A DNA stretch of 44,311 nucleotides, filler included, from Catajapyx aquilonaris (Eukaryota), in assembly GCA_000934665.2 (NCBI GenBank). It is 2 parts of 2 records of this genome, joined end to end, with 100 filler letters (N's around TTAATTAATTAA, not from the genome) between each part and the next. Parts side by side here need not be neighbours in the genome. Positions count along the whole stretch, not along the records: positions 1 to 22,033 come from JYFJ02005933.1; 1 more part is not named here. One strand, given 5' to 3'. Positions within the stretch are counted from its first letter, which is position 1. Each line of letters opens with the position of its first letter. Positions 4,276-42,130 of the stretch are shown piece by piece. Made by a program: the position numbers and the translations under genes. The notes beneath the pieces are model-generated. The model was not told where the DNA came from, searched no databases, and was given only the letters and a program-made list of their open reading frames with translations.

Positions 4276-4531
4276 ATGGATACCCCGTGATAGGCCTCCT
4301 TGGGTCTCTTAGGGGATCATCTTTTATTTAACCGACTTTAATCATTTCCTGCGCTGTGATGGATTTTGATTGTGGGAGGAAACGGGAGAACCCCGAGAAA
4401 ATCCACGCGAACACGGAGAGAACCCATCGAAACTCTATCCACTTAAGTATCCTCTGCGCGACCCGGGGATCAAACTCGGGACCTTAGAGGTGGAAGGCTG
4501 CGGCGCTAACCACTCGGTCACCGTGTTGCCC
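4275..4531 (-). mobile_element. tRNA-derived SINE (family C); its (ATT)n tail is displaced to about 3444-3500 by the SINE-A pair
   Basis: Minus-strand head GGGCAACACGGTGACCGAGTGG...GAGTTTGATCCCC. Homologous to 18737-19009. Confidence 0.8.
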
Positions 4532-4980
4532 TTAGATTATTAATTATTATACCATCATAGATTAATGATAGATTAATATTATACCATCACATGACAACTT
4601 CATTTGAGAATGAACCTATTTTGTTGTTATGATGGTCTTCTACAACTTACTGAAGATGTTATTTCTGAGATGTTCAGGAGAACAGAGTTTTGCTATTTAT
4701 GTGTGCTACATTTCAAATGCATGTCATTTTGTTGTCCCATCCATTACCTGACTTAATGAAATTAAATCACCATGTAAAAACATAAATTACCAATATCTGC
4801 AGTTTCGTAAATGTTAACACCATGACTATGTTGCCCTTGAAATATGTTACATAACATTCAAAAACACTTATACGTTATACCTACATAATTTATATTTGAA
4901 AAAATAAGATCCATTAATTTTGTCCCATCCGTTACCTTGGAATAAGCCATATAATTCACCTTGATATTCATTATTTTCAG

Positions 4981-7900
4981 TCTACTTCAACCAGTTCACC
5001 CGTGGGCCTGTCAGTGACCTAATCAAGCCACCGTATTATAGGCAGCATATGATACCGGCAAGTGAAGGTAAATTAAAATACAGTATATCATTATAAGAAT
5101 GACTGATGTAACCAGATTATCATTATGGTTTTAATTTGTGGGTAAATGTGGGTTTTTGCTCTGATTTTTTTTATAATGTTTGACATGCCACCATTTTTTC
5201 ATTACTATCCAGTCACAATAACAGTGGCAACAGCAATGATTTCATTTAAAACTTTTCAAAATCAGATAATGGTAGAGTAAACCATACAGTGATGGCGCAC
5301 TGTGCCTTGGTTTTTTAAAGGAAGGGTTCAGTGATTTTGCATGTTTGGCTTCAAAGATCAAGGCAGACTCCCTGATTCCAAAATGTGGTCAGTTTTTGAA
5401 TCTGACGCCGCTTAAGCAAATGCTGTTAGGTGAAAGTCAAAATGGCTACTGTATTCGATACGGTACTCATACAGCTGGCACCTCCCGTGGAGATCCCAGT
5501 AACCTGCATGGGCCACCTTTGGCTAAGCATCAATGCTAAGCTGAAGGCGGCCCATGCAGGTTACCGGGATCTCCATGGGAGGTGCTAGCTGTATGAGTAT
5601 CGTATAGAATACAGTAGCCGTTTCAACTTTCACCTGACTGCGTTTGCTTACGTGGCTTGATGAAACAGTTCGTGAAGACATTAAGTAGCCTACTGATGGT
5701 GAATGTTTTCAAGCATGACAATATGCGTTACAGTTTGAAAAATGTAAATAATATCGAAAAATAATGTCCCAATTTTAAAACCCTACAAGTTGAAAACTTG
5801 CAGACATATCCAAATTACTTAAGTTTTGAAATGTTAAGAAATGTCTAAAGGTTTGGTCTCACCTTAGTTTGTTTCAATATGAGCTTCATTTGTCACTCAA
5901 GAAATCAAAAAGATGGTAATCGGTCTTGAGGCAATCCTGCTCAATTGTGTCTGGAAATACTGCTGCGATCCTAACCGTATGTGCTGGAAGTTGACTGGTC
6001 TTTACACCACAAACATTGTTCTTGATGATGCACATGAAAAGTAGCCTCATACAAACAAACCTGCAGAAGGAAAGATTCACTTGTTCAGCCTCCCAGTGTG
6101 TGAAGTCGTGAATGAGAAGTTTCCCAGTGCCTAGCCCCCCAGAAGCCCAGATCTTACCCTGATGGACATTTTTGTGGAGATACATGTATGGTAAAAAGAT
6201 CAGGTATCTCCAACACCTACGAGAAAAGTTCGCAACGGTAACGACACCAGACATGACATGTCTGAACTGGTTAGACAAGACACCGATTGCCATATTTACA
6301 TTTGCCGAGTGACAAATGGAGCTCATATCGAAACAAACTATGGGAAGACCAAAACGTTAGACATTTCTTAACATTTCAAAACTTAATCATTTAGATATGT
6401 CGACAAGTTTTAGAGTTATAGGATTTTAAAATTGGGACATTATTTTTCGAATTTTTTTAAATACTTTTTTCAAACTTTAATGCATATTGTCATGCACCTA
6501 CAACTTGTTGTGAATAAAAAAAGACTATCACTTTATCAAGAGGGTTGTTTAAGCCTAATCTTAAAGGCCAAAACAGAAAAAGATTTTGCGGCAGCGACAA
6601 GCGGCAAACGCGTGCCCCGCCAATTATTATTAATTATTGGCAATAATAAATATAAATAAGAAATATGCCACAACGCGCGCCGTTTGCCGCGCGATTTTTT
6701 TTGGTGAAATGGCCTTAAGACTGCATGACCATAAATGCCTCAGACAGATCATGTCATCATGCGACATGCGTCAAAATGTCACGAAAACTAAAAATTTGGA
6801 ATTGTAGAAAATCTAGAGCTTACAGAGAAAAGCCAACATCAGATTTGAATTCAGCACACTCAAGTTAGGTAAGAACACCTGCTGGTATCAATGCAACAAA
6901 AAATTTGTTGCCCAGTGTTATCATTATTGTTTCAGTTTATGATTTTAATTTGTGTTGTTGCTATGTGGCTTTGTGCTCTGATTTTTTAAAAATGTTCCAC
7001 ATTGTCACCATTTGTTCATTACTATCCCAGCCACAATAACAGTGGCAACAGAAGTGGTTACATTTAAAACTTTTAAAAATCAGAGAATGGTACCTGCATA
7101 TATTTCACCTTGATATTCATTATTTTTAGGCTTCTTCTACCAGTACATCTCATGGATTGGCCAATCTGGGTTAGTGGAGGGTTGCTGGGTCTACGTAATG
7201 TCGCCATCAGATCAAGGTATATTAAAATACAGTTGACTCCAGATATAACAGACTTCAAGGGACTATGAAAAAAAGTCAGTTATAACCAAATCACCGCTTT
7301 TGCAATGAATACACAAGTTTTCTGCTTGATATTTGCAACGTCACCCCAACTCTTGTTTTCTGGCAAAAGAAAACTGAACACACCCTTCCCTAAATCTGGG
7401 GGACGGGGCTGGTCAAGGGTGCAGTCATTCTTTTTAGAGTTAGACTTCTGTTGCCTGTAGATCATTATAATAATGACAACTGTAACCAGATTATGATTCT
7501 TTCATGTTATGGTTTCTAACCCTTTGTCTCCCACGGCCCGATTTCGTTGTATTATACAACCAAACAAAATAATTTTTTGAAATTCACTGGTATAATCCTG
7601 ATGGAAATTTCTTTCCCCATAGCCTTAGGAAATGTTTGTAGTTTCTATGGTCATTAGTATTTACGCCACTTGCTTGATATTTTTAATGGCACAACGTCAT
7701 AGGCCAAAGGATTCATCCATTGCAAGCAATCCGAAACAAACACTTACTGCATGAATTTAAATACACACCGCTCCCTGCAGCTTATTTCCCGGTATGTGGA
7801 CGTCCAGCTGAAAAACATTTTTAAAAATCCCGAAATACTGCTACTTACTTTTCACTGGGGAAAAAATCAGAAGGATCTGTGAAGGGTAGGGAATCTCCCC

Positions 7901-10900
7901 TGGCGCCATTTTAGTCGTAAAAAGCATCCTCGCACCTAATTGGCTGGGCGGACTGCTCCAAGCTCTGGGTGTTGCCCACTTGCTACCTGAGACGCCTTTT
8001 TTGCATCCGGTGGATCACATTACTTCCTTTTGAACCGGACCTTTAAATTTTATTTAACGAACACTTAATGTTTTCATAATTTATCAGAGAGACTGGGCAA
8101 CCATATAGAATTATCTTGGATTTCTTAGAAAGGAAGGAGCCGCATTTAAAGAATTGTGTAGATGACGTAATAAGATGATGTCACCGTCTTGTGGATAGTT
8201 GATGAGGTGGTTGCTGCCCTCTCTCGATATGCAGCGTAGGTTGGTATGTCTCGCAACGTTCAGCTCCCTCTTGTGCATGAATCGAGAGAGAAACCAATGG
8301 TTCCAGATCCAGTGATTTCCACCTAGGGCACTCATTTTAAACCACCACCCGAAGAGTTCAGAATCGCACAGGAGACAAAGGGTTTATTGAAGATCTCGGG
8401 TGAGGAACAATCAAGGTCCATCACGAGTGAAACTGAGATATTGAAATTTCAAATACTTGTAGAAGACCTATAAGGTTCTATTGTAAATCCCACTTTTGAG
8501 GGCTTCCATATTGGACTATGTTCATTACTCCACAACCACGACCTAACCATCATATTCTACACGAGTGAAAGTATCTTCTGCGATATGTAATTCATATTAT
8601 TTTGACAAAAAGTGGACCTTGACCGTTCTTCCCAGAGGTCTTCAATTTGTTGTCGCTACATAATAACAAGTTATTTCATTTAAAACTGTTAAAAATCAAA
8701 TATATGTTCCTGCATATAGTTCACCTTGACATTCATTATTTTCAGTGTTATTGCACATGGCGTTAGTATCAAATAGCAAGCGTGAAAATCCTGAGGATGT
8801 TCAGGGAGCCGCATCAATGCCAACAGCTGGAGGTAAGTTAAAATAGGTTATTACAATTATGACAGATGGACAAGATTGTGGTCAATGCTTCAATTTATGC
8901 TTTTAATTTGTGTTGCTATAATTATGGTCTGATCTTGTTCCACATGTCAGACTTTCTTCATTACTAGCCAAGTCACAATAACAATGGGAACAGAAGTGAT
9001 TTCATTTTAATCTTTTAAGATTCAGAGAATGGTACCTGCATATAACTGACCTTGACATTCATTGTTTTCAGTGCCATTGAACCAGGAGTTCCTATCAAAT
9101 AGGAAGCTTGTGGAAGTGAGTGATAGTCGTGAAAATCCTGAGAATGTTCAGGGAGCCGCATCGATGCCAATAGCTGAAGGTAAGTTAAAATAGGTTATTA
9201 CAATTATGACAGATGGACAAGATTGTGGTCAATGCTTCAATTTATGCTTTTAATTTGTGTTGCTATAATTATGGTTTGATCTTGTTCCACATGTCAGCCT
9301 TTCTTCATTACTAGCCAAGTCACAATAACAATGGGAACAGAAGTGATTTCATTTTAATCTTTTAAGATTCAGAGAATGGTACCTGCATATAACTGACCTT
9401 GACATTCGTTGTTTTCAGTGCCATTGAACCAGGAGTTCCTATCAAATAGGAAACCTGTGGAAGTGACTGATAGTCTTGGAAATCCTGAGGATGTTCAGGG
9501 AGCCACATCGATGCCAATAGCTAGAGGTAAATGAAAATAGGTTATTACAATTATGACAGATGGACAAGATTGTGGTCATTGCTTAAATTTGTTTTTAATT
9601 TGTGTTGCCATAATTGTGGAGTGACCAATCAAAACGCAACATCCACCAACAAAGCCATTTCGAGATATTCAACAAAAACCTATTGCTCCCAAATGGAATG
9701 TGACCAAGAAACAAAATGTGCAGTACGTTATGTCCATATGCAGAGGTGGTTAATGGTGTATGTTAATGAAATCAGGAATTGTCTAGTCACAAGAAAAAAA
9801 TTAATCCATTTTTTTTTTTTGTATTACCCCATTGGGAGTTACATCTCCTTTAGGGGGGTGGAATACCACCATCTGGGTGGAACCGTTATACTAACAACCA
9901 CACGAGCCTCAAGATAGTATTTAGTGTGTTCCAAGGGTAGGTAGGAGGGGATGTGCAAAGTGCAAGTGCAATGTCTCTAATCGTCATTTTGTGAACTCCC
10001 CCGGGTGGCTTAGTCTATCGGAAATTGCCACCCGAAATGAAGCCAGAGATGGCCCAACTCTGCACGGATAAAGGTGGGAACCCCGGGTGGGGATCGAACC
10101 CGGGACCTTAATATCTGTGGGCGCGTACGTTACCACAGCGCCACTTCATCTCCCAAATTAATCCAAATTTGACTTATTGCGTTTTGATTGGGTACATGTG
10201 TCAGATGTTGCGTTTTGATCGTTTATTATCATTGGCCATATTATTAAACTGTGATAAATTCTTAGTATCTTCTATCAGCAGGAACCATGTTACCATATCC
10301 TTGACACTAATTATTATCTAAACACAATGCTAATCATGAGAACATTATTAGCTATTAGTCTTCAAATTTTATTACTTTTACACCCGTCGGGGTTGGAACG
10401 AATCGAAGAGAACAACAAACGTACTACTGTAGTACTGTGTGGGTTGGTTAGCTTACTCTATGGGATTGGTAAGATATCGGCAGCCATTTGTAACAGTTGC
10501 GCATATCCCACTCTCCCATTGGCTGCTTGGCGCATGATGCATTTTGAAGTAGCAGGGACGGAGTAGTAAGATGGAGGGGAAAGCTCCGTAAGCCGCACGC
10601 CAGCTTCTTGGCAGTTTTTGTGTCTGGGGCTTTTCAGTTCGCCGGACGGCCGCCAGTTGTCGCGACAGTCGATTTAGCTTTAGGATCTGGTGATTTACGC
10701 GTGCTTTGAATGGCGAAGCACTGCGTGAACCGCTGATTTTGGCGATTTAACGGAAATGGCTCGTCCTGAGTTGGACAATTTTGATGTGGATGACAACAGT
10801 AGTTATGCACACATATTGCCCTGCCGGTCAAGTAGTGGTGACATTACGGACGGAGCATTACACTACTTGTCAAAAGTTAAGCATCACTCCCAAGGAGAGG

Positions 10901-13900
10901 TTTTTAAATTTCTCAAGTTTAAGCTTACAGTACAAATTGAAAGTGTACGGTACCGTTGAAAGCGTCGTGAATAACTCTACAAAGCAAAAAAGGAACGGTC
11001 ACTCTAGGTTCAACAGAGGCGCAGATATTGCCTATTTAGTTTTAAAAACATTCTCGAACACCTACATTTTCAACTATGAATATTAATAAAGGTAATCGTC
11101 ACGAATTGATGCTTTATAATTTTTATTTATGGCAAGAAGCAAACGCCGAACACAAAAAAATTACCACAAAAATTTAAAAAACTTATTACTCGAACTGTAA
11201 TTTTTTTAATTTGCGGCATTTCTTCTTACATGCACGGTGCCGAAAATTTAAAAAATTACAGTTCGAGTAATAAGTTTTTTAAATTTTTGTGGTAATTTTT
11301 TTGTGTTCGGCGTTTGCTTCTTGCCATAAATAAAAATTATAAAGTATCAATTCTTGACGATTTTTTTGTGTCCGGCGAACTGAAAAGCCCCGGACACAAA
11401 AAATGCCAGGCGGCTGAGGCAGGTTTTCCCTCCATCTTACTACTCCGTGTAGCAGGTATGGGTCACATATTGCGTTTTGAAGCGACACTCCATTTTCCAG
11501 CCCTTATAACGCAGTAGATATTGCATTTAGAGATGTCACAATCTAACACACACGTAGTCGCGAGCCTCAAGGACGTGCTACAACCTATAACTCGATTTTG
11601 AAAATTTTGGCGCTTGTTGCGTTTTGATTGGTCACTCCTCAATTTATTATGGTCTGATCTTTGAATAAAGTTCCACATGTCAGCCTTTCTTCATTACAGC
11701 CAAGTCACAATAACAATAGCAGCAGAAGTGATTTCATTTGAAACTTTTAAGATTCAGAGAATGGTACCTGCATATAACTGACCTTGACTTTCATTGTTTT
11801 CAGTCCCATTGAAGCAAGAGTTCCTATCAAATAGGAAGCCTGTGGAAGTGACTGATAGTCGTGGAAATCCTGTGGATCTTCAGGGAGCTACATCGATGCC
11901 AATAGCTGGAGGTAAATTAAAATAGGTTATTTATTTATTTATTTATTTTATTTTTATTTGTCTTACCCTTTGCTACCCTTTGTGGGGTATTCAGTGGAAC
12001 TCCACTCCCTTACAGTATGTTCATACAATATAAGGGAATGATTAAAGCCCTGCTATACATACATGATACAGATGTGTGACATAATTTGCCGGAGACCATA
12101 ATACTACTCAGTACTGGTACATTTCTAACAAATCATGACAGTCTTGAAAAAAAGAAAGGTCTCCTTGGGAACTGCATTGAAGGACCAAAGCAGGCTGTCC
12201 GGAGGGGCCTTTGTCAGTGCATTTAGGTATTTTTGTCTAGGATAATCAAAAATAGGGCATTCAAAAAAAACATGGTGAAGGGTCTGGTTTAGCCCCATGT
12301 TGCACCAGTCGCATACTTCATCCTACACAATTTTCAGAACTTTCCCCTGAAGATAAAAGGAGGATGATAAGTTACGGATCTTCATTATTAAACGGATAAT
12401 GGGAAAGGGGAGGTCACCACAAAAATATGATTCAGGCATACTTCTGGCTAGTGCCTCGGCATAGTAACAGTAGCTCTTGGATACTACGAGGTCAGACATA
12501 TCTCGCTGCTTGAGCTTCACCAAAATACGCGGGAGAGAAAGAGATAGGTCTACTTTGTTTCCTGTCAGCCAAGGTTTGTTCAATCCCACCATTATTTTTT
12601 CTATCTGGCATAACCAGCTGTATGCTTTCGGTTGCTTGGGTTCAAAGGATCGAGTCACAAATGCCATGGCCATACCAGTTAGCGAATCTGGAGTTTTATC
12701 TATTAATTTGTTACAGAATTTGACCGTCTGACGTATCAAGCAATACGCCAGAGAGGGGAGATTCACCTGGATTCTTAAAAAGAACCCCGCAGTGGAGAGC
12801 GGCAGGAGAAAGATTTTTTTTAGATACTGGTTTTGAATTGTTTCAAAGCTCATATAGGTAGCTCACGCCCCAAGTGGGGAACCCGTATTGGAGGATAGGT
12901 ATAACCTTGACGTAAAAAAGTTTCATCGCTATCTTTAGATCTCTAACCTGAAGCCGTTGAAGCAGTATCCACAGTGCATTTACCGCTTTCTGTTTGCTGC
13001 CCTCCATTGCTTTGGCAAATTTCGCAGATGAGGCAAATGGGACACCTAAGTATTTATACTGATTTAGGATCTCAAGCGATCCTCCGCCTAAGAAAAAATT
13101 CATTTTGGGTGAAATTCTACCACCTTTCCTGAAAATTACTACTTTTGACTTCGATTGATTTATCAGCATCCCCTTGTTCTCGAAATATTTATCCAGCCTT
13201 GACAACTGGTGCTGTAGGTAAGTGGGATTGTCCGCTAGAAGTACCACATCGTCTGCATAAATTACGTATGTATGTCCTCCTGATTGCTTCCCAGATTAAC
13301 CCCCAGCGAATCTTTTTCCCCCAAAAACGCACCAAGGTCAGCTAAAAAGATATTGAATAGCGTGGGGGACAGCGATTCTCCCTGCAAAACTCCTTTGGTG
13401 ACATCAATCGGACTCAACTTCAAAGAGTTCGGACATAGTCTGGCCTTAGCATAGAGATCTCGAAGTAATCTAATGAAATTGTGACTGATCCCATACTTCA
13501 CCATCTCGCCCCACAGAAGGTCATGATTTACTGAATCGAAAGCTTTCGCAAGATCGATGAAAGCCGCATATAATTTGCCTTCCGGACGGGCAACATATTT
13601 TTGTGTTAATATGTGCAATGTGAATATATGGTCTAGACAGCCCGTGCCAGGTCTGAAAGCCGCTTGCGCTTTCGGGATCGTGTTATGTTCATCGCACCAA
13701 TTGCGGAGTCGACAGACTAAGATTAATGTGAAAAATTTAAGGACATTATTCAGCAATGATATGGGTCGGTAATTGCTTGCTATCGATGCATCTCCGCCTT
13801 TAAAGATAGGTATGATTTTGATTTGGGTCCAGCTCGCAGGAACCCTGTTCGTTGATAGACATCTGTTAAAAAGAGATCTAACTATCTGGTTTAACCTTGG

Positions 13901-16900
13901 TATATTTCATTTGTAAAAGGCATTTGGAATACCGTCCGGACCAGGCGCCGAGTTTGCTTTAAGCTGCTTGCAGCCTGAATCAAATTCAGATTGTGATATT
14001 GGGGAATCCAGGATCAGATCAGGAAGGTGCTCATGCAGTTGCGGAGACGGGTAAATTCTCAGTTCAAGGAACACTGTATGCAAATGCTCCCACCAAACCT
14101 CCTCCTTTAGGATAGTGCCCCCTCTCTTTTACGAATTAAATGACTGCACAGTGTCCCAAAATACCTTTGCGGATATCTCTCTCAGCAATGCTTGGATAGA
14201 GAATGCTAAGTATTTCCTTTTCTTGACTTTGATGTGTGCCTTATATTGTTTATTTGTCAGCAGATAGCTATCTCTATCGTGAGCTTCGTCTGTTTTGCGC
14301 CAACTACATAATTTGGACCTCACCTCCAATCTTTCCTGTTTTAACTCCCAGTCAAACCACTTTGCATTTCTCACTCTCCGATTGTTTACATTCACCTCTT
14401 TTTTTTTCACTTCTCAGCCCGAATGCAGAGAGTAGTTCCCAAATAACCACCTTCAACGTACTAGCATCTTCCTCCAACTCCCCTTCCTTTAGAAGCGCAT
14501 TCCATTTCTCCCCTTGAAAGGGAGACGGAGTGGCGCCGCGGTAACGCGCGCGCCCACGGAAGTGAAGGTCCCGGGTTCAATCCCCACCCCGGGTTCCCAC
14601 CTTCTTTCGTGCAGAGTTGGGCCATCTCTGGCTTCGTTTCGGGTGGCAATTTCCGATAGACTAAGCCACCCGGGGGAGTTCACAAAATGACCACTACTCG
14701 ACAGCGCACACGCACTTTGCACATCCCCTCCTAACAACCTTGGAGCATAATAATAAGATCCTTCTTAACACGCTCCAAAAAATAATTCCGATGGTGGTAA
14801 TCCACCCCCCATATATACGCAATAGATATGGGATAATGCAAAAAAACAAAAAAAAAAAAACAAAAAAAAAAAAATCCCCTTGAAGCTCAGGTTCCAAAAA
14901 ATTGAACCCGTCTTCTGGTACAATTGTCCGAAATTCTTTGGACCGCTGATTTATTGGTGGTTGGTCCAGCGGTCCAGCGTATTAATCCACAGGGAGATCT
15001 GAACTGGAAAATGGTCCGACTGGGTAGCTGGCAGGACAGTAAAATCATGCACATTCAGTAATATGCCCACCGACACACAAATTAAATCGACAACACTTGA
15101 TCCTCTACTTGAGGTGAAAGTATATTCGCCCTTACTATCAGATGGAGAAGCCCCATTAAGCACAACCAACAAATGGGTACATAGGAAGTTGAACAAGTGC
15201 GTTCCATACACATTTTGGGTAAAGTCTTTTGTCGCTCTGTGGTATAATTTAAGGTGGTGGGGAAACATGTAGGTCTCAGGACAAAAGGTTTTTTTCCCCA
15301 ATCTAGTGTTTGTATCACTCATCAAAATAAAGTTTGTACAGTTTGTATCGGTGAAGCAGTCTTGTTCGAGTCCATCTAACATCTGCCTTAAATTTCAATT
15401 TGGTGGAAAGTAAACCAGAATTAAAGTTACCGGCTCCTCCATTAGCCCAAACACCTCCACCGCTATATAACTACTGGCAATCTTAACAAACTTCGGTTTC
15501 AGTTTTTTATGCAATAGGAAAATCAAATCACCTGAAGCCCTGCCGTGGTCATGTGTCTTCTTCGCTTGACTTTCGAATTTAACAAAATCACTCCACAAAC
15601 CGGGCACTGTTACCGGCACTGTTTGCCATGTTTCCACTAGCCTCCACGCCCCCACTTCTTGTCTGGTGTTAGGCAAATCATAAGCAAGCACACTCAGGGG
15701 GTGACCTCGAATGTTCCATGCAATTAGTTCGATCTGGATAGGCGATCTAAGGCCTGCTGACACTGCCTCAGTGGGCATATAGTCTTAAGCACCCTCTTCT
15801 GGGTCGGCAAAATTAAGGGCAGTGACAGTATGGCGGCTCTCCACTGACCCCTGGCCCCCCTCTCACTTCTCCCGGAATTACCTCCGTTTCACAGCACTAC
15901 TTCAGAATGCTGCTGATCATCCTTGGGCACCACATCTTCGGAACTGAACTGGCACGGCGCCCCTGTTCTTGGTTGCTTCTTTGATTGAGCTGAGTCCAAT
16001 GGTGACGCGTGGCGCTTCTGAGACTGCAAGGATGGGTCCTTCCTTGCGGGAATTCCGGCCAGAACACCTCACCATGGCCTGCCTCGCGTACGCTGATCTG
16101 CCTTCACCACTGACCCGCCGTTTGCACTAAGCATCCACTGTACTCCATCAACTTAAAGCTTGTCTGCCCTCAGAGAAGCCTTCTTCCCCTCGCGTTTCGC
16201 CTCCACCAAAAATGGAACCAGTGCTCTGCGTGCCTCCCTTGTCATCTGCGAGTAATCTTCCCCAATGGCCAGAGAGGACCCTTGCTTGGCCCATTATTAT
16301 GTCTTTGTTGTAGAATCTCAGTAATTTGGCTATAAGCGGATGGGCGAGTCCCCTCCCCAGCCAGTGAGCACATGCCATTTCCAGATGCTGCGGGTTGAGA
16401 TGTAGATTGTGCTGCGAAATTACACGTCACACCAAGGCCACACAGTCACACCACGATTCCTTTGCCCTCTCAGGAAGCCCGTAAATGATTATGTTGTTAC
16501 GTCTTGATTGATCCTCCAACCTTGAGAGCTGCGACCTTAGGCGGACCACCTGTGCTGATAAAGTGGTAACGGTTTCACCCATCTGCACCACCTCCATGGA
16601 CACCTTCTCCCACTTGACACTCCACGTCTGATCCAGATTGGTCACGGCTCCGTCGATCTTCTCATGGATTACCTTGACAGCTTGGGACATGTCCGCAGAA
16701 AGCTTTCTCTGCATCTCGTCCAGCATAAGCTGGATCTGATTTGCGGTCGCCATTTGCCCCACTTGACCCACGTGTATCTGGCTTTCTCTGCTAGTCTGGG
16801 AGCTCGGTCACGCACACCCTTTCAGTTCTGCTGGCAGGAGGAAAGTCCTAAAATAGGTTATTACAATTATGACAGATGGACAAGATTGTCGTCATTGCTT

Positions 16901-19900
16901 CAATTTATGCTTTTAATTTGTGTTGCTATAATTATGGTCTGATCTTTGAATAAAGTTCCACATGTCAGCCTTTCTTCATTACTAGCCAAGTCACCGAAGC
17001 TGGTTGGCATAGTGGATAAGGCGTCCGACTGCTAATCGGGGAGCCTGGGTTCGAATCCCGGGGCCGGCAACTCTGACCGTGGTTTTCTGTGGTTTCCCAC
17101 GGTCCTTCCAGGGAAATTTCGGAGTTGCTTCCGTAATTAATAGGCCACAGCCGCTTCCTTCCATCCCTATCCTATCCCAATGAGCATAGTAAAATGAAAG
17201 CAAAGAGTTCCAGGCAAAACAAACTTCCCCCCTAAAGAGCCGATGGCTGATAACGGGGTATGAATTTATTTATTTATTTATTTATTACTAGCCAAGTCAC
17301 AATAACAATGACAGCAGGAGTGATTTCATTTTAAACTTTTAAGATTCAGAGAATGGTACCTGCATATAACTGACCTTGACTTTCATTGTTTTCAGTGCCA
17401 TTGAACCAGGAGTTCCTATCAAATAGGAAGCTTGTGGAAGTGAGTGATAGTCGTGAAAATCCTGAGGATGTTCAGGGAGCCACATCGATGCCAATAGCTA
17501 GAGGTAAATTAAAATAGGTTATTACAATATATTATGACAGATGGACAAGATTGTGGTCATTGCTTCAATTTATGCTTTTAATTTGTGTTGCTATAATTAC
17601 GGTCTGATCTTCGAATAAAGTTCCGCATGTCAGCCTTTCTTCATTACTAGCCAAGTCACAATAACAGTGGCAGCAGAAGCGATTTCATTTTAAACTTTTC
17701 AGATTCAGAGGATGGTACCTGCATATAACTGACCTTGACTTTCATTGTTTTCAGTCCCATTGAACCAGGAGTTCCCATCAAAGAGGAAGCCTGTGGAAGT
17801 GACTGATAGTCATGGAAATCCTGTGAATCTTCAGGGAGCCACATCGAAGCCAATAGCTGGAGGTAAATTAAAATAGGTTATTACAATTATGACAAGATTG
17901 TCGTCATTGCTTCAATTTATGCTTTTAATTTGTGTTATTGCTACATGGGTTTATGCTGTGATTTTTGAAAAGTTCCACATGCTATCATTTGTTCATTTCT
18001 ATCCGAGTCACAATAACAGTCCCAATGGAAGTGACTCCATTTGAAACTCTTTAAAATCAGAGAACAGTACCTGCTGCTAATTCACTGTGATATTCACTAT
18101 TTTCAGACTCATTCAACCAGTACACCCCATCAAATAGAAAGCCTGTGAGAGTGACTGATAGCCATGGTAACCCTGTGGATCTTCAGGGAGCCACATCAAT
18201 GCCAAAGGCTGGAGGTAAGTTAAAATTGGTTATTACAATCATCATGACACATGTAACCATATTACCATTGTTGTTTCAATTTATGATTTTAAATTTGTGT
18301 TGCTACATGGGTTTATGCTCTGATTTGTGAATAAATTTGGATCCCATTCTTCATTTCTATCCAAGGCACAATAACAGTGGCAACAGAAGTGATTTTATTT
18401 GAAACTTTTAAAAATCAGAGAATTGTTTCTGCATAAACAGGGTGTTCCGAATTCGTGGGTCGTTTTTTTTAAAACTGATATCGCCCAATAGCAGTCATTT
18501 TTGTGTAGCTTGTTGTGCCCCTATCCAGGTTCTCCATTACTCCCATGTGGTCAAATATAGCAGTTGCTATAGAATGGGGCCAACCCCCGTACACTATCCC
18601 TACAACCTTATCTTATCACCTGACGAGGCGTTTTGCATGAGGTGCTCGCTTGAGAGCGCCATGAGACCTTTCAATGCTTCATTATGTGGTGACCCTACCG
18701 GACCGCGCTGAACTTTATAGGTACAGAAGGGAAGCGCTACATTGGGGGACCCAACATGGTCGCAGGTGGCCATGTTGGGCCCGCATTTAGCGGCTTCCCT
18801 TTTGAATGACCTACTTTAATCATTGCTTGCGCTGTGATGGATTTTGATTGTGGGAGGAAACGGGAGAACCCCGAGAAAATCCACACGTACACGGAGAGAA
18901 CCCATGGAAACTCTATCCACATACGTATCCTCCGTCCAACCCGGGAATCGAACTCGGGACCTTAGAGGTGGAAAGCTGCGGCGTTAACCACTCGGCCACC
19001 GTGTCGCCCTAGGTCGCCACATAATGTAGCTGTGAAAGGCCGTCTCATGGCGCTCTCAAGTGAGCACCTCATGCAAAACGCCCTGGCAGGTGATAAGAGG
19101 GAGTGACCAGACCTTACTATTATAAGACCATGAATGGAGCACATGGTTAGGGGCACAACAACTGATACAAAAATAACTGCTATCAAGCGATATCAGTTTT
19201 TTAAAAACAACCCTCGAATTTGGAACAGCCTGTATAACTCACTGTGATATGCATTATTTTCAGGGTCATTGAACCAGGAGATCCCATTAAAGAGGAAACC
19301 TATAGAAGTGACTGATAGTTTTGGTAATCCCGTGGATCTTCAGGTAGCAGCCTCGGTGCCAAAGGCTAAAGGTAAATTGAAATAGATTATTATAATTATG
19401 ACCCATAGAACCATTTATAATGTGGAACGAAAACCACCTTTTAAAGTCCTTGGGAATTTATCACTATTTCCATGTTCTTTAGGTCACTCATAACTCATAA
19501 TGATCTTAATCCAGTCTGAACTTGGTTTTGACTTTGAGGCAGTCAAAAAACCAGAATTCTATAAATATAGGAGTCATTTCAAAATGAGGTGGTCCAAAAT
19601 GTTTCTCAGCTATCTCAGATTTTGCTGAAAAACGTAGCAGAAGTCCACACCTAAAGCCATAAAGCTATATGTTAAGTTTCAGCCATATTGGGGGAGGGAT
19701 GCACTTGCGTAATTTTAGATGTTAAGCCCTATAATGGCCAATTTTTTTTTATTAGGGCAAGTGGTCAGAAATCAATTAACATATTATATCCAAAGGAGGA
19801 GGAAGACAAGAAGAATTCTACTGTGGAATTCGCTTTCCCCTCCCCTAGAAATGACGTAAAATTTCACAAATGTCATGATAAGTAAAGCACAAGTGTTGGT

Positions 19901-20293
19901 GTTTTCAAATCTTCTCATGGTTCGACTCACAGACATAGATAGTGTTTCACTTTCTTTCATTTCCTCACCTAAATACTTTCAAGGGGCCATGCTTCTCTAT
20001 CTTCTCCCTCTCCCCCGCCCCCCCTTCTTCCCTCTTCCCCCTCCCCCTTCCTCTCTCCCTGTACCTCTCAATGACAGTGGCTACAGAGGTGATAATTTAA
20101 GACTTTTAATTAGAGTATGATGCATGAATTTAATTCACCTTTTTATACATTATTTTCAGATTCAGTATGTTCAAGCTCATTAAAGCAAGTCGAACCACGG
20201 AATCCCTGGTTGAAGGATGTTTGGTCGTACAATGTGGAGCACGAGTTCCGGCGGATTGGACGAGTACTACAAAAGTACAACTATGTTGCCATG
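4981..20293 (+). CDS. Partial multi-exon gene: ten tandem repeat exons plus a CAF1/POP2 (CNOT7/8)-like N-terminal exon
   Basis: AG..GT-bounded exons: 4981-5067, 7130-7216, 8746-8832 (87 nt); 9072-9179, 9419-9526, 11804-11911, 17396-17503, 17755-17862, 18107-18214, 19264-19371 (108 nt); 20160-20293. All are stop-free in phase 1. The 108-nt consensus is about VPLNQEFLSNRKPVEVTDSxGNPxDxQGATSMPIAG. No start codon exon or downstream catalytic exon was found. Confidence 0.7.
5407..5656. mobile_element. Palindromic (foldback) MITE-like element
   Basis: Imperfect inverted arms of about 120 bp centred near 5531. Confidence 0.7.
5713..6495. mobile_element. Non-autonomous DNA element with TIRs of about 190 bp
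   Basis: 5713-5905 is the imperfect reverse complement of 6300-6495. Confidence 0.75.
6566..6714. mobile_element. Small Harbinger-like MITE
   Basis: GGCCA.../...TGGCC ends in a TTAA context. Internal inverted GCGGCAAACG/CGTTTGCCGC. Confidence 0.5.
6770..6917. mobile_element. Truncated end of a Chapaev3-like element
   Basis: Ends ...TTTGTTGCCCAGTG|TTA and shares ATTTGAATTCAGC with the end of the 34470-35658 element. The other end is not seen. Confidence 0.5.
7520..8382. mobile_element. piggyBac-like non-autonomous element
   Basis: TIRs CCCTTTGTCTCC / GGAGACAAAGGG, inserted at the TTAA site of the host repeat unit (flanks are now CTAA / TTTA). Confidence 0.7.
8387..8645. mobile_element. MITE
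   Basis: Imperfect TIRs of about 33 bp: TTGAAGA(T/C)CTC...TCAAGGTCCA. Confidence 0.65.
9809..10154 (-). mobile_element. tRNA-derived SINE (family B)
   Basis: A box TGGCGCTGTGG, B box GGTTCGATCC, poly(A) tail. TSD AAATTAATCCA (9798-9808, 10155-10165). Confidence 0.9.
10558..11448. mobile_element. Mutator-like non-autonomous element
   Basis: TIRs of about 85 bp starting ACGGAGTAGTAAGATGGAGGG. 9-bp TSD GTAGCAGG(G/T). Contains a palindrome with arms of about 120 bp at 11097-11359. Confidence 0.7.
11932..16848 (-). mobile_element. Full-length but disrupted non-LTR retrotransposon (LINE; ORF1 + APE-RT ORF2, possibly RTE-X-like)
   Basis: 14-bp TSD TAAAATAGGTTATT (11918-11931, 16849-16862) and (TAAA)n tail. 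ORF1 coiled coil plus SRRNNIIIYGLPE (from 16771). APE motifs WNIRG, ETW, VVDL, SDHFPV (15778-14951). RT motifs FIDLAKAFDSV, GVLQGESLSP, YADD (13756-13250). C-terminal Cys/His knuckle near 12250-12320. Multiple frameshifts and stops. The clade assignment is tentative. Confidence 0.93.
14519..14874 (+). mobile_element. tRNA-derived SINE (family B) inserted in LINE ORF2
   Basis: A box TGGCGCCGCGG, B box GGTTCAATCC, poly(A) tail. TSD TCCCCTTGAA (14509-14518, 14875-14884). Confidence 0.9.
16993..17283 (+). mobile_element. tRNA-derived SINE (family A)
   Basis: tRNA-like head, (TTTA)n tail, TSD ATTACTAGCCAAGTC (16978-16992, 17284-17298). Confidence 0.92.
18438..19232. mobile_element. Tc1/mariner-like MITE with nested insertions
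   Basis: TIRs CAGG(G/C)TGTTCC(G/A)AATTCG...AAAACTGATATCGC at a TA site of the host repeat. Confidence 0.8.
18737..19009 (-). mobile_element. tRNA-derived SINE (family C)
   Basis: Head GGGCGACACGGTGGCCGAGTGG...GAGTTCGATTCC. Homologous to 4275-4531. Confidence 0.8.
20160..20293 (+). CDS. Exon encoding the N-terminus of a CAF1/POP2-family (CNOT7/CNOT8) deadenylase
   Basis: DSVCSSSLKQVEPRNPWLKDVWSYNVEHEFRRIGRVLQKYNYVAM|gt resembles the recalled CAF1 stretch (I/L)xDVWxxNLEEEFxxIRxVVQKYxYVAM that precedes DTEFPG. Acceptor tttcag, donor gtatgt. Confidence 0.85.
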
Positions 20294-21102
20294 GTATGTC
20301 TCTTTTTGTTAGTTAATGATGATGGTGATGATGATGATGATGATGAAGATAGGGAGCATTTTTCACCATACAAGTTTTGCACTCAATCCTTTATTATTAA
20401 ATCCCATATACCCTCCTGAGACCTGGTGTCGACATATGTCGACATCAGCAAAATATTTTTTTGGCGCCAACTAGTGATGCCAACAGAACTGTAATCTGTT
20501 GGTATCCCATGGTTACAATCTGGCCTCAGTAGGTGTAGCCACCTAGCGTCGAATATCTGACTTGGGCCGCGAAAATTAAATCGCGGATGAAATGGCGGAT
20601 TCCGCTGCTGAAACTAGGCGCTCATCTGATAAGTTTTATTTTTTTACTCACATTTAGAGTGCTATTTTCGCAATGCAGTGAATGTCCTGGGATTCACAAG
20701 GAATGTGTCTTAGGAACTGCGAAAGGAAGTGTTTGTGACAATCTTGGTTGATGTAGAGAACTGGTCATTTTCTTTTCTTCCTGAGACCAAAAATGCCCAT
20801 TTAAATGGACATCCGAAAAATGGCATTTTTAGTTGAATGGGCTGTGACTTTTCTTTAAGTGACCTATACACCAATAAGGAAGTGTGCTTTGCACTATGCA
20901 GTTCAGTTTTAAAATCTAGAATGGCAAGGTACCACTCTAGCGGGTAAGAAGGGAAGGAGCAAGCCCCATCCCTGGAGTGGTGGCGTTCAAAAATTATTTC
21001 ATTTATCTTTAATTGTCTTCTGAGAGGAATTGCTACCACGAATTCCACAAATGAATTTAAAAAACATTGTTTTGAGGATAGAGCACTATGTTAGTGATCC
21101 AT

Positions 21103-22033: not shown

Positions 22034-22133
22034 NNNNNNNNNNNNNNNNNNNNNNNNNNNNNNNNNNNNNNNNNNNNTTAATTAATTAANNNNNNNNNNN
22101 NNNNNNNNNNNNNNNNNNNNNNNNNNNNNNNNN
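22034..22133. other. Assembly gap with an artificial six-frame-stop linker
   Basis: 44 N + TTAATTAATTAA + 44 N = exactly 100 nt. Confidence 0.95.
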
Positions 22134-27242: not shown

Positions 27243-30200
27243 TCATCTAATGGTAAGATTATTATTGCTGCTCTTCCATGCTGCCCCTATCCACAGAGTG
27301 AACTGCAGTAAAGTCAATCTAAACAGCTGCCACTGTTCCTGCATACGAGTCCACAACATCTTCGCAACTGATTCACACTGCTTTGCCCTCTCCCCATACA
27401 CCACCTTGATGCAACTTCTAGACATGGACAATAGTGATGACTGGCTCCGACTCACTCCTAATGAGGAGTCAATGCCTCGTAGCAAATCATTAGTTTTGAA
27501 TGCTAGCAACATTTCCCGCGGTACTGTATCTAAAACAATGGATATCTCGGGAAGGTACTGTGATACATTGGTCTGAAGTACAGCCTGCTCACCCTTTTCT
27601 TCTGACTTCTTATGAATACCTGAAACAATGGTAGCCCAAGGACGAGCTGCCAACATCACTGCAACTATGCCATAGAATCGTTCCACATTCAACTCGCGTG
27701 CTGCAACACGCATCCCTTCAACATCAGCACTAAGTATTGCCAGCCACATTCGTGCATATGATGATTTAAAGCTTGGGCTCATCTCCAGATACAGTCCATG
27801 GTCCAACAAAGTCACCTCTAATTTATTGCCAGGCTGGCAATGGATCAGTATGTTTCCTGGGTGGGGGTCACAATGGACAAGTCCTTCCTTGAAGATCATC
27901 TCAGCATACAGTTGGCCCAAACGGTTAGACACATCTTGGGGGTTTATCCCATTATTGCGAAGAAAAGAAAGGTCATTCACTTGACCTCCAGGGCAGAATT
28001 CCATCGTCAACACCCGACTAGTTGTCATGTCCCAGTAGATCTCTGGAATCTGATAGTGTGATGATTAAACAACTGGCATCAAGGGTTCAAAACATTATCC
28101 TATCCATTTTTCTGCTTTTGTTGGTATCACATACAAGCCCCCAGTGAAGACTTTGCAAAGCCATTTCCTAAAGATTCTGTCAACATATTACTAATTGAGC
28201 AGCACATTTCTGTTACATTTTAAATGCTAAATGAACTCTGAGTGTAGTGATTTACAATATTACTTGCAGAGATGGTTAAACCTCATTCTTTTCAGGCAAA
28301 CCATAAAGGATGCCAGTTTACAACAGCATATACCCTACTGTGCAAGAAAAAAATACAGTAAAACTTGTATAAGTCAAACTTCCCTAAGTCGAAGTTCTCT
28401 ATAAATCAAATTAAATTATGAGCTTGGTTGGTCACAATGTAAAATAATAGGAAATAAACTTCCCTAACTCGAATTTCTATAACTCGAAGTTCTACATAAC
28501 TTGAAGTGCTCGAAGGGCCTTTCGATGGGATATCAATGCATTTTCAGTCTCCCTAAGTTGAAGTTCATGTTGGCGAGTACGGAAAATTGTCTCATTTCCC
28601 AGCCGAAGGGTCGAGAGTAGGCCACATGTACAGAAAGGCTCACATCACATGGGCATCTTGCCAGTCGCAAAGTGGTAAATGGAAGATCACTTGGGGGTGA
28701 AATCTAGAAGGTTCGTGAAGTTGAAAATTCCACGCGCACCATGGCTAGACAACTCTGAACCACTGTGATGGGCAAATGACAGTCCATATCAACGTCCATC
28801 AACGTCAGTCCATCAACGACAGTTCATATCAACGTGTTGACAGTGACTACATAATTATGCAGGGATAGGACTTCTATCAGGAAAATAAGGGCGTACATTG
28901 GAAAAAAAAATCTGCCCAAGTTACAGGTGCATAACAATTGCACTGTTATTGTAGGGAAAGATACGTATCTCACTTGGTGCACTGAATCCGCCGCCGGTTG
29001 TCACCAGGGCTGACCTCAAATATGGACTCATGACTAAAAATGACCTTCGACCAGATCGCTTCCTCCATTTCCTTCTCTCCTTCGCCTATGCTAGTTTTTT
29101 CCCCTTTTGAACAGCCATCAAGAGAGCACGCGCCTTTCCCTACAATAACAGTGCAATTGTTATGGACCTGTAACTTATGCAGGATTTTTTTTCCAATGTA
29201 CACCCTTATTTTCCTGATACAAATCATATCCATGCATATGTAGCCACTGTCGACACGTTGATACAGACTGTTGTTTGCCCATCACAGAGGGTCAAAGTTG
29301 TCTTGCCATGGTGTGGCATGGGTATTTCATCTTTGCGAGCCTTCAAGATTTCACCCCCAAGTGATCTTCCACGTACCATGTTTGCGACTGACAAGATGCC
29401 CATATTGTCGGCCGGCGATCAAAACCTCGTAACTCCATTTTGCGCGAAAATGGACTTACGAGTGAGGTCAGTCGAGAAAATAAGAAAATAATCACCCGTG
29501 TACGCTCAAATCTTCGTATACCTCCAGTGACATCACAACGACATCTATTGACCAATTCTAAAACATTCATGAACAGAAAACATGATTTTACAAAATGTTT
29601 TTTGTCCCTCCTGTAAAATTTGGTCTTGAGGAGTTACGAGGTTCTGATCGCCGGCCGACGATATGATACATGATGAGAATGCCAATGGAACATTTCCATA
29701 TGCCTTACAATTTTCCCTATTACAGTGGTGTCACATCACCTGGCCGATTTATTTTGGCACAGCGACTGCTATGGACAAATTGTTCTGCACCTTGTGACAC
29801 ACTTTAAATACCTTGTATTAAATATGGTAATTATCCTAGAGGTTCCATATTAAGTGCAATCGTGGGCCAGGACCCATCCTTTTCGGTGGGCACCTTTCCA
29901 GTACCGTGGGTGTCAATTTATGAGCATGTGACGCCTCTTCGTAAATCGAGCAGCCACGATTTCAAGGTGGCCGAATTATTCTGGGTTAGGGCAAGTATAA
30001 TGATAACACCTGCATATATTCTGCAATCTGTTTCCCTTACCCTGAGCCATGGTATGTGTCCAAAAACTTTGCGTAATTTTTCTGCATTTTCCCCTTCTTG
30101 CATGAAATCCAGCTCTTTGGGCAAGTTTCGTTTTGTCTCATCTACCAGCCACTGGAATTTGAAGTCCGGAAAGATGCGTGAAACAATGTTCACTAAGGTC

Positions 30201-33200
30201 TCCATCATGTGCATGTCCACTTCAGAATATCGCTTAACCAGGGGGTGCTGAACTTTAACTGCAACTTCATTCCCATTGGGCAAAACAGCACGATGAACCT
30301 GTGCCAATGATGCTGTACCCAATGGTTTTGGATCAATCTCAGCAAATACATCCAATGGCTGAAAAGAGTGCATTATTATCAATGTCATGGGCATACAGAA
30401 GAAATCCACTGTCCAATTTCGGCAGTTTTGAGTTATTTACACCACTAAGGGCTGGTTGTAAGAATATGAGTTAAGGTTGACTACGAGTTAAGGTTGACTA
30501 CGAGTTAGCCTTGTACTTTTTGGAATCCATTGTTCTCTTGATATGGACAACTGGACCTACTCCAAAGGCCGAAAGACATCCCTAAACCATAACTGAACCA
30601 CCACAATATTTGACAGTAGGAGTCTGGTACTTGGGGTTGACTATCTGTCCTGTTTGTTTGGATCGGATGGTGTTAAATGGGTTAGACACCCAGTAGGAAC
30701 AGAGATAAAAACCTAAGTACCTGACACCATGATTCTATGGCGTGAAGATGCTGAGCTGTGATTAAGAATTGTGGCTGTGCCGCAAATTATTAATGTGATT
30801 TGTTTTTGATTAATTCTTGCATAGTTAAAGCAAGTAATTTTTTTTACAAAAGTTTTGTCCACCATGATTTCATCTGCATTAAATAATTCATAAATAATGC
30901 AAGCTTCTGGGACTTTTATTTAATGTAATTAATATAGTAAACACAAAGACCAAAAAAATCTCACCAGGAAAAGGACAAAGAATTGTCAAAAAGAAAATAA
31001 TCATTTTGTGCAAAGATTTTCACAGATGTTACTGTTTATAAGAATCTATACTCAATATCCTACTCGCCATTCTTTATTTAACAGTCTCAGGAATAAACAT
31101 TGATGAATTTGTGGAGATATGGTAGTTTCAAAATGTAATAAAGCAATATATTTCAATGTTATGGAATAAGTATTTAGTTACAAAATGTACCCTACACATA
31201 ATGAAATTCTGCTGCAAGGTTATGGTACAAACACATACATCACACTTGAGATCCTCCTTTAACACCTGCATCACATCCTTCATACGATGTGGTGGTGCCT
31301 TGCTGTGCAACACACTCAGTATCTGGACGTATTCAGGTGGGACCAAATAGTCCCATGCACCTATGTGCTGCCCCACTTTGATGAAGACACCACCATTAGC
31401 ACAGCACAAGGAGAGGAGCTTCTCTGCTGATCTCCGATGGACCTGATAAAAAATGTACATTTAAGTGAACATTGATTCCACAGGTCACACACATAAAATC
31501 TCTTTAATTAACTCCATGCAACTCTGCATGTCTCTATACAGGGTGTTTCAACTTTTTTGCCCCAACAGTTATCGGAAATATTGCACCAAGCTGCTACTTT
31601 GTAAGCAATGACTTGCAACCGGTTTGTCGGAGGTATGGGGAATATTCCCTGCGAATCTTAGGTTGAAGTGGCATACGTGCTTACAAAGTAGCAGCTTTAT
31701 TTGTGCAATATTTCCGATAACTGTTCGGACAAAAAAGTTGAAACATCCTGTGTTACTGTATTACCTCACTTAAAGCTGCATGACGGTGTAATCGAGGTCG
31801 ACCAGGTTTTATAAATGCACGAACTGGTGGCTATAGCGGCATGCTGGTGTAAGTGAGGTATGCCAGTATAAGGCAAGGTTTTCTTAAGCACAGCATTATC
31901 TCTATGAAAATTATTATTACTCAAATGAATGCATTACACCATGTTCTATGGTGAAGACACAGCCCAGGACACTTCTATCGCCTGACGCATGCCATAAGAT
32001 CGTTCGTTAAGTTCAGATTTCATGGCAACATTTTCAATTAAAAGTGCAAGGCTGCAGGCTGCAGGCTGCAGGCTGCAGGCTTGGGCTGCAGGCTGGGCTT
32101 GGATTTTATCTGAGTAACGAGGCTTTTAATAGAAATTGATACCACTACACAAAGTGATCCTCTGATTGCCAATGAGATCTGCGATCAGCAAACTATTGAG
32201 CAAAACGAAGGACTGCAGGAATTTGTCTTGATCCTTTGTAATGCTTTTAGGGGGATTCCCTTCTCATATCAGGCTGGATATGGCCTTGGTCACACTCTAT
32301 GCCATGTGCAACAGATGAACTTGCATATTCTCACAGCCCTGTAGGCCTGTACAGTACTAGCACATTTTTCACCATAACTTTATTTTAGTACAGGTACCAG
32401 ATGCATTCCAAAAAATTTGACAAGCATCAAAATTATAGAAATCTACCTCGGTTATTGCTACATGCCGGCCATGCCCCGGGCTATACCAGCATGTTGGTCG
32501 ACCTCGTTTTATACCTGCATGCCGCTTTAAATGAGGTAATATGGTAACAGTTTCATGCACGTGTGATAATAGTGCCCTGTGTATAAAAGAAAGAATGCCT
32601 TTTGATGCGATGCCTCTAGGGATTATCTGAATTCATGTATAACCCTGCTAATGATAATAATCTTACTGCCATATGGCAATGATGAAACTGTGAGCATGAC
32701 AGTCCAGACAGGTTTGCTGTCATGTAGGAGATGGGAATGTCCTAGAGTCACTGGCTGAAAGGGCTACTGCAGTCCTTTGCTAAATCCTAACTGCCCTGGA
32801 AATGCATACATTTTCACATTATTTTACTCATCTCCAGTTTTTGAACCGGCACCTATAAAGCAGGTTTTTTTTAAAACCGGTTTTGACTTGCTTTTAGCAT
32901 ATTATTCATAAAATTTTATTCTCGCAAATCTTAATCATCCCTTTTGCCTTTCTCCCCCAAGAGTGGAAGGTCGCAAATTGCTGTGTACCTCCAGCACACA
33001 GCCTAGCATCTACAAGATTTGTCTACTAGTACGTATTTCATCTTATACTTTTGGTATGTGGGAGATGTGATGAATAATAATTGAAATGCTGGCCTAGAGC
33101 AACAAAAAAGGTTAATTGGTGTTAATCCCCACACATCGTACCTAACTCATTTCACCAAAAATATGTAAGATTTCTTTTCATTTCAAAAGATGACTATACA

Positions 33201-41857: not shown

Positions 41858-42130
41858 ACCGAAGCAGGTTGGCATAGTGGATAAGGCGTCCGACTGCTAA
41901 TCGGGAGGTCCTGGGTTCGAATCCCGGGGCCGGCAACTCTGACCGTGGTTTTCTGTGGTTTCCCACGGTCCTTCCAGGAAAATTCCGGAGTTGCTTCCGT
42001 AATTAATAGGCCACAGCCGCTTCCTTCCGTCCCTATCCTATCCCAACGAGCGCAGTAAAATGAAAAGCAAAGAGTTCCAGACAAAACAAACTTCCCCCCT
42101 AAAGAGCCGATGGCTGATAACGGGGTATGA

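Follow-up and report, generated by a model that had tools for sequence, protein, structure and literature searches.

A tandem array of likely leader exons ahead of a CAF1/CNOT7-type exon in Catajapyx aquilonaris

The locus and its features

We analysed a stretch of 44,311 nucleotides (nt), filler included, from Catajapyx aquilonaris (assembly GCA_000934665.2); the whole of this stretch is called the window below. Between positions 4981 and 20293 the plus strand carries ten short blocks with splice signals on both sides, here named cassettes e1 to e10, followed by an eleventh exon, e11, which by its predicted peptide is the N-terminal exon of a CAF1/CNOT7-type gene. The locus is a tandem exon duplication at an unusual gene. 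Judged from sequence features, the ten blocks are likely a real, fast-evolving array of leader exons, which we treat as a candidate for translation only. The exons are as follows.

4981..5067, plus strand: e1, 87-nt cassette, of the oldest type, with a body scrambled in comparison to the other cassettes
7130..7216, plus strand: e2, 87-nt cassette, acceptor TTTTTAG, donor GTATAT
8746..8832, plus strand: e3, 87-nt cassette, equal to the 108-nt type minus one 21-nt in-frame deletion
9072..9179, plus strand: e4, 108-nt cassette
9419..9526, plus strand: e5, 108-nt cassette
11804..11911, plus strand: e6, 108-nt cassette, the sole ATG being the in-frame one
17396..17503, plus strand: e7, 108-nt cassette
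17755..17862, plus strand: e8, 108-nt cassette, in-frame ATG lost (AAG)
18107..18214, plus strand: e9, 108-nt cassette
19264..19371, plus strand: e10, 108-nt cassette without any ATG, GTG at the in-frame position
20160..20293, plus strand: e11, CAF1/CNOT7 N-terminal exon of 134 nt, phase-1 entry, phase-0 exit where GT follows ...YNYVAM

Three of the ten cassettes have a length of 87 nt and seven a length of 108 nt, which sums to 1017 nt or 339 codons. A T-rich tract and then AG stand ahead of all 11 exons, and GT follows each of them, as GTAAGT or GTAAAT in nine cases, as GTATAT in e2 and as GTATGT in e11. Intact splice signals and a frame-preserving length were thus found in 10/10 cassettes. 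Phase 1, where two bases are skipped, is the sole frame that is open in all ten, and it leads on to the CAF1 reading frame of e11; one further frame is open in e2. The exons are symmetric, so that the frame is kept whatever number of them is included.

Each cassette belongs to a unit of exon and intron, and these homologous units are arranged head to tail. Tandem Repeats Finder gave periods of 347 and 359 in the array. A blastn search with one unit returned 18 plus-strand matches from 4948 to 19396 and none elsewhere in the window, and a search with a profile of the unit (exon at positions 1-108, intron at positions 109-353) returned 18 pieces from 4948 to 20159, all on the plus strand. Cassettes e4-e8 are 89-96% identical to each other. 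An earlier, sequence-only reading of this DNA had proposed ten AG..GT exons of 87 or 108 nt, all multiples of three, with phase 1 as the only frame open across the set and leading in frame into 20160-20293, the array having been made by duplication of an exon-plus-intron unit of about 350 bp. The coordinates, the splice signals and the 339-codon sum were all borne out, the translation of all exons agrees with the proposed frame, and the tandem repeat periods, blastn, alignment and unit profile agree on the duplicated unit.

The CAF1 exon

Directly 5' of e11 lies TTATTTTCAG, and the end of the exon reads ATG/GTATGT. The GC content is 46% within e11 and 30-34% in its flanks. Its phase-1 translation runs ..LKDVWSYNVEHEF....QKYNYVAM. 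A phmmer search of this peptide against PDB gave nine sequences with E<=1; the top four contain CNOT7 (E 0.0014-0.0023), and the lower matches are CNOT8 (E 0.071), yeast POP2 (0.24-0.28) and one unrelated adhesin (0.89). Query residues 17-44 align without gaps to residues 12-39 of CNOT7. The N-terminal strand-helix segment ..VW..N...E...I......Y.YVAM of the CAF1/POP2/CNOT7 family is therefore present and aligned to the solved CNOT7, and the alignment upholds the earlier assignment of 20160-20293 as a CAF1 N-terminal exon.

When the 44 amino acids of e11 were searched with phmmer against 1.84 billion representatives, seven matches had E<=0.001. Only two of them are genuine fragments of CAF1, namely P0005 with 59% and P0007 with 48% identity to e11, and the other five (P0001-P0004 and P0006) were set aside as unrelated repeat proteins. 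A metagenome scan gave 157 stretches fitting a pattern, two of which, L001 and L002, were confirmed. The phase-0 intron after YVAM is conserved, as GT follows the ATG of YVAM both here and in L002.

Other searches returned less. A word-based protein search produced one candidate for the CAF1 exon and 12 candidates for the repeat open reading frame (ORF), none of which scored; the protein libraries seem to be built of unspliced ORF calls, and a spliced product would not appear in such libraries. A Pfam scan of the 101-residue stop-to-stop ORF at 20114-20416, with about 28 residues of the CAF1 domain present, assigned no family at E<=0.01. The following exon, with DTEFPG and the first two catalytic DEDD residues, was sought as TEFPG or EFPG and was not found in the six frames of the window. 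Between e11 and the apparent contig end at 22033 there are 1.7 kb.

Shared intron end and origin of the units

Three features directly ahead of e11 are needed for the argument below.

20066..20159, plus strand: copy of the 3' end of the unit intron (profile positions 255-353), directly 5' of e11, profile E 5.6e-08
20001..20059, plus strand: CT-rich tract specific to the last intron, found before e11 only
20117..20122, plus strand: ATGATG in the CAF1 frame, with A at -3, open to 20160, a stop at 20111-20113 standing just before it

The 94-120 nt immediately 5' of e11 are copied from the end of the unit intron. When the 120 nt upstream of each cassette were compared to those upstream of e11, identity was 56-63% at -120..-35 and 71-82% at -34..-1. 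Since these upstream stretches are paralogous, the cassettes sit behind copies of the acceptor of the CAF1 exon. A descent of the cassettes themselves from the e11 body, as decayed copies of it, was rejected for want of significant similarity: the best local alignment (e6) was equalled by 34 of 500 shuffles, and the scores of the other cassettes were reached in 86-423 of 500. The CT-rich tract at 20001-20059 may function either as a long polypyrimidine tract or, for an e11 extended at its 5' end, as a promoter element.

Identities along the units form a mosaic. The intron upstream of e2 is 83-85% identical to those of e4-e9, while the e2 body has random-level identity to every other copy; the downstream flank of e3 is 99% identical to that of e4, while its upstream intron reaches only 54-59%. 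These patterns point to patchy gene conversion and not to uniform ageing. The introns next to e1 and e2 share 74-91% of their last 34 bases and 62-94% of their first 16 bases with those of the other cassettes, whereas the two bodies are 44-55% identical to any other copy. That these bodies are more diverged than their own flanks is unexplained.

In Dscam-type mutually exclusive clusters, each unit carries an intronic element that is complementary to one docking site. A search for a docking or selector complement of the conserved intron element gave nothing better here than one AT-rich 13-mer at 3267-3279 (E 0.066), exact in only two units. The RNA pairing that marks a mutually exclusive cluster was accordingly not recovered for this array.

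Exon-like composition and possible translation starts

The GC content of the cassettes is 46-49% as compared to 26-38% in their 100-nt flanks. This holds for all ten, e1 and e2 included, and the contrast matches that of e11. Among 108-nt windows taken from the introns, 20 of 541 are open. Cassettes e1, e2 and e3 all measure 87 nt and are open, a state reached by different indel paths; after shuffling, the fraction open in the given frame was 0.26 for e1, 0.24 for e2 and 0.17 for e3.

Exon e11 has no in-frame ATG ahead of the domain (none before its final M), and its first ATG, at 20167, is out of frame; a productive start must therefore lie upstream. The frame of that first ATG is itself open to the end of e11 (20167-20293, 42 codons), which may be accidental or may record an old frameshift in the leader.

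An in-frame ATG stands near the donor in eight of the ten cassettes, 16 nt before it in e3-e7 and e9 and 19 nt before it in e1 and e2. The single ATG of e1 (5049) is in frame, 19 nt 5' of the donor, and is the first ATG of the array, so that a transcript entering at e1 would read through to CAF1. An out-of-frame ATG precedes the in-frame one in e2, e4, e5, e7 and e9, and in e3 an out-of-frame ATG is placed between two in-frame ones. The in-frame cassette ATGs stand in weak sequence contexts, and most of them have T or C at -3.

Favoured explanation

The reading that we tentatively favour, although we would stop a little short of calling it probable, is that the cassettes are real leader exons which are additive and translatable into CAF1. 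A unit of one leader exon and its downstream intron would have been tandemly duplicated, repeatedly, at the 5' end of a CAF1/CNOT7-type gene, with patchy gene conversion among the duplicated units. The resulting cassettes would be splice-competent, of phase 1-1 and open in the CAF1 frame, and any spliced subset of them would keep that frame. Translation would start inside the array, at one of the in-frame ATGs carried by 8/10 cassettes, and run into the CAF1 domain. The predicted product is a CAF1 protein with a fast-evolving and probably disordered N-terminal leader, the length of which would be set by the cassettes after the first ATG used; the disorder of the cassette peptide is derived from its composition. 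In favour of this reading are the acceptor copies ahead of the cassettes, the splice signals kept in 10/10, the GC contrast, the open 87-nt cassettes, the small fraction of open intron windows, the one common open frame that suits e11, the lack of an in-frame ATG before the domain in e11, the in-frame first ATG of the array and cassettes that no mapped insertion interrupts. Anatomy, phase continuity, exon-like composition, splice signals and the CAF1 identity of e11 are observed; splicing, translation and a number of cassettes varying between transcripts are inferred.

A more far-reaching version, which we consider doubtful, is that variable cassette number, obtained via splicing or via unequal crossing-over, tunes a disordered extension, between 0 and about 340 residues long, ahead of this catalytic subunit of CCR4-NOT. 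Under that version an exon body would change more quickly than the introns beside it, and frame, length class and composition would be all that it retains.

Several results weigh against translated leader exons. Purifying selection on the cassette peptide was looked for with the ratio of nonsynonymous to synonymous differences (pN/pS) and with the divergence of exons and introns, and neither measure indicated it. Pooled among e4-e10, pN/pS was 0.95 in the proposed frame versus 0.95 and 1.01 in the wrong frames, and the minimum numbers of changes at the three codon positions were 11, 14 and 17. Exons diverge about as much as introns; e4 and e5, for instance, differ by 8.3% within the exon, by 0% in the upstream intron and by 8% in the downstream one. 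Cassette e1 can be aligned to e9 only with numerous indels whose lengths are no multiple of three, so that homologous bases stand in different frames, and the e2 peptide is hydrophobic, unlike that of the other cassettes. The open frame, moreover, is less striking than it seems, since e4-e8, at 89-96% identity, inherit it. In the consensus 12 of 315 single substitutions create a stop, and 42-45 changes spare all copies with p 0.17-0.20, so that finding e4-e10 all open would be only a mild surprise under neutrality. Taken on its sequence, the array gives no sign that the cassettes form constrained coding sequence.

The anatomy of the 5' end raises further points on the same side. Upstream of e1 a start-bearing exon was sought, and the four combinations of an ATG and a phase-1 donor found there are all weak or lie in a SINE-like repeat (SINE, short interspersed nuclear element). 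The intron copies between e1 and e2 do not join, the unit intron breaking at profile position 316 and resuming at 158; therefore one cassette may be lost between them. If the AG at 20158-20159 were unused, the ATGATG at 20117 would be a candidate for a canonical start with a short leader. Of the repeat extension of at least 339 amino acids proposed in the sequence-only reading, the 339 open codons in frame stand, and their translation is left unsupported by the pN/pS of 0.95, the scrambled oldest copies and the alternative start at 20117.

Alternative explanations

That start leads to another account of the locus, which we hold to be rather unlikely: the cassettes could be unused pseudo-exons within an intronic or upstream repeat that carries copies of the CAF1 acceptor, the true first coding exon being e11 extended at its 5' end. 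The extended exon would begin downstream of the CT-rich tract, at about 20079-20088 or where transcription starts in that region, and ATGATG 20117 would give a leader of about 31 residues. The ATGATG at 20117-20122 is indeed in the CAF1 frame with A at -3 and open to 20160, and at the place homologous to it the aligned acceptor regions of all ten cassettes hold an in-frame TGA, which e11 alone has lost. The CT-rich tract 20001-20059 is present only ahead of e11, relatives start within the equivalent exon with leaders of 9 residues (L002) and 17 residues (P0007), and the pN/pS of about 1 and exons diverging at the speed of introns count in its favour as well. However, this account leaves two things unaccounted for: that the units and the e11 flank cease to be homologous exactly at a strong acceptor, and that GC-rich open blocks with good donors and a length divisible by three are found in the old e1 and e2. 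It would also require translation of a stretch homologous to a branch-point and polypyrimidine region.

The start codons near the donors allow the cassettes to be read as alternative or mutually exclusive leader exons as well, one per transcript, each contributing 5' untranslated region, a start and five codons (of the MP-x-A-G type). The canonical length of the protein would then be kept, and the open frame 5' of each ATG would be incidental. The in-frame ATG near the donor is retained in eight of the ten cassettes even where the body is scrambled, it is the sole ATG of e1 and e6, and tandem exon duplication is reported to be commonly tied to mutually exclusive choice (PMC9013439). We nevertheless judge this quite improbable: the ATG is lost in e8 and e10, it is preceded by an out-of-frame ATG in e2, e4, e5, e7 and e9 and is faced with an interposed one in e3, and its context is weak in most copies. 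Symmetric exons do not enforce exclusivity, and the search for a docking or selector complement yielded the 13-mer at 3267-3279 only. Finally, the locus might be a dead, incomplete copy of a CAF1 5' end, the functional gene being elsewhere in the genome, which seems to us highly improbable. The DTEFPG exon was found neither in the 1.7 kb after e11 nor elsewhere in the window, and a first ATG that is out of frame in e11, with its frame open to the exon end, would fit an old frameshift. Exon e11 is nevertheless intact, 59% identical to P0005, free of gaps relative to CNOT7 12-39 and equipped with a good acceptor and donor, and a next intron of at least 1.7 kb is unremarkable in a genome rich in transposons.

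Insertions and surroundings

The array is broken up by the following insertions.

5275..6923: inserted block with foldback arms, in the interval e1-e2
9628..11644: insertion of about 2 kb in the intron e5-e6, with terminal inverted repeats at 9612-9649 and 11607-11644
11932..16832, minus strand: 4.9-kb insertion in the intron e6-e7 bearing a long interspersed nuclear element (LINE), with RVT_1 and endonuclease ORFs on the minus strand
16995..17276, plus strand: tRNA-derived SINE-like insertion of 282 bp with a tRNA-Ser-like head at 16999-17069
18436..19222: foldback insertion resembling a miniature inverted-repeat transposable element, in the intron e9-e10, its core 91% identical to 4331-4532
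19409..20065: further interrupting stretch in the array profile, which includes the CT-rich tract

All mapped transposon insertions are in introns, and the ten cassettes are uninterrupted. Profile positions 101-128 are present on both sides of the LINE block 11932-16832, and profile positions 309-324 overlap at the edges of the foldback element 18436-19222, which in profile coordinates ends 41 nt 5' of the e10 acceptor; both overlaps look like target-site duplications. An overlap at the SINE-like piece (about 235-258) was not counted as one, being T-rich simple sequence that does not align.

The repeat core occurs at 4331-4532 and at 18809-19010, upstream of e1 and of e10, with 91% identity over 202 nt. 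The breaks in the units of e1 and e10 almost coincide in profile coordinates (about 309-324), which reflects either shared ancestry or a target-site preference. Sequences resembling tRNA-Ser(GCT) were found at 16999-17069 and 41864-41935 (Rfam tRNA, 39-40 bits). Both are probably SINE heads and not tRNA genes, because the first lies inside the 282-bp insertion in the array.

The window is eukaryotic in content, with a LINE reverse transcriptase, tRNA-derived SINE-like pieces and a (CCTAA)n tract. This interstitial (CCTAA)n/(TTAGG)n-like tract at 1937-2059 has a period of 5 and 25.6 copies and carries what we take to be the arthropod-type telomere motif. The remaining features are these.

22034..22133: spacer made of N44, TTAATTAATTAA and N44
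27243..30433, minus strand: two exons of an ABC1/ADCK atypical kinase (Pfam ABC1, E 1.7e-35 and 7.1e-38), taken as part of the second contig
38501..39016, plus strand: ORF or exon with a match to the alpha/beta-hydrolase fold (Abhydrolase_1, E 2.3e-07)

The spacer, apparently of a kind with stops in six frames, seems to join two contigs, the piece that holds the array ending at 22033. The ABC1-kinase gene and the hydrolase exon therefore need not be neighbours of the array.

Comparison with known systems

The 5' end of a canonical CNOT7, CNOT8 or Pop2 gene was represented by L002, P0005 and P0007. As in the present locus, an exon coding for ..DVW..N.E.EF..I......YNYVAM is followed by a phase-0 intron after YVAM; in L002 DTEFPG comes after an intron of about 90 nt (judged by eye), and P0005 and P0007 read into the intron after VAM. 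L001 differs in having no intron after YVAM. The relatives and the present locus share an acceptor some 56-75 nt ahead of the DVW codons, that of L002 being 75 nt before the GAT of DVW. Canonical leaders are short and start inside the exon, with 9 residues in L002, 17 in P0007 and 11 ahead of the aligned stretch in human CNOT7, whereas here the exon lacks an in-frame ATG and ten in-frame cassettes stand ahead of it. No tandem repeat was found in the 2 kb upstream in L002, and neither L001 nor L002 carries the cassette repeat.

With tandem exon duplication arrays (reviewed in PMC9013439 and PMC9741552), the locus shares exons copied head to tail within one gene together with flanking intron, splice sites being kept. 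The classic arrays are pairs or clusters of conserved coding exons with exclusive choice. The present array differs in consisting of ten copies in the leader region without detected peptide constraint, and in a symmetric phase that makes additive inclusion possible. Furthermore, the cassettes resemble symmetric 1-1 exons that code for disordered segments, as well as newly created exons (PMC3632108 and PMC2592719): they are short, symmetric and fast-evolving, they stand at the 5' end of a gene, and their peptide is likewise hydrophilic with a high content of P, G, S and N. These surveys cover human genes, unlike the present case. A CAF1 gene bearing an array of this kind was not found among the papers listed for symmetric tandem exon duplication or for N-terminal extension of CNOT7 in arthropods.

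Biological significance

Few components of the mRNA decay machinery are as strongly conserved as CAF1/CNOT7, which normally has a short N-terminus. For annotation the locus is a warning that an open, splice-flanked repeat is insufficient to call coding sequence. If the cassettes are untranslated, it illustrates how a duplicated segment bearing an acceptor yields candidate exons that are neutral to the frame. If they are translated, this lineage would have gained a long and evolvable tail on CAF1, by which recruitment or localisation of the protein could change.

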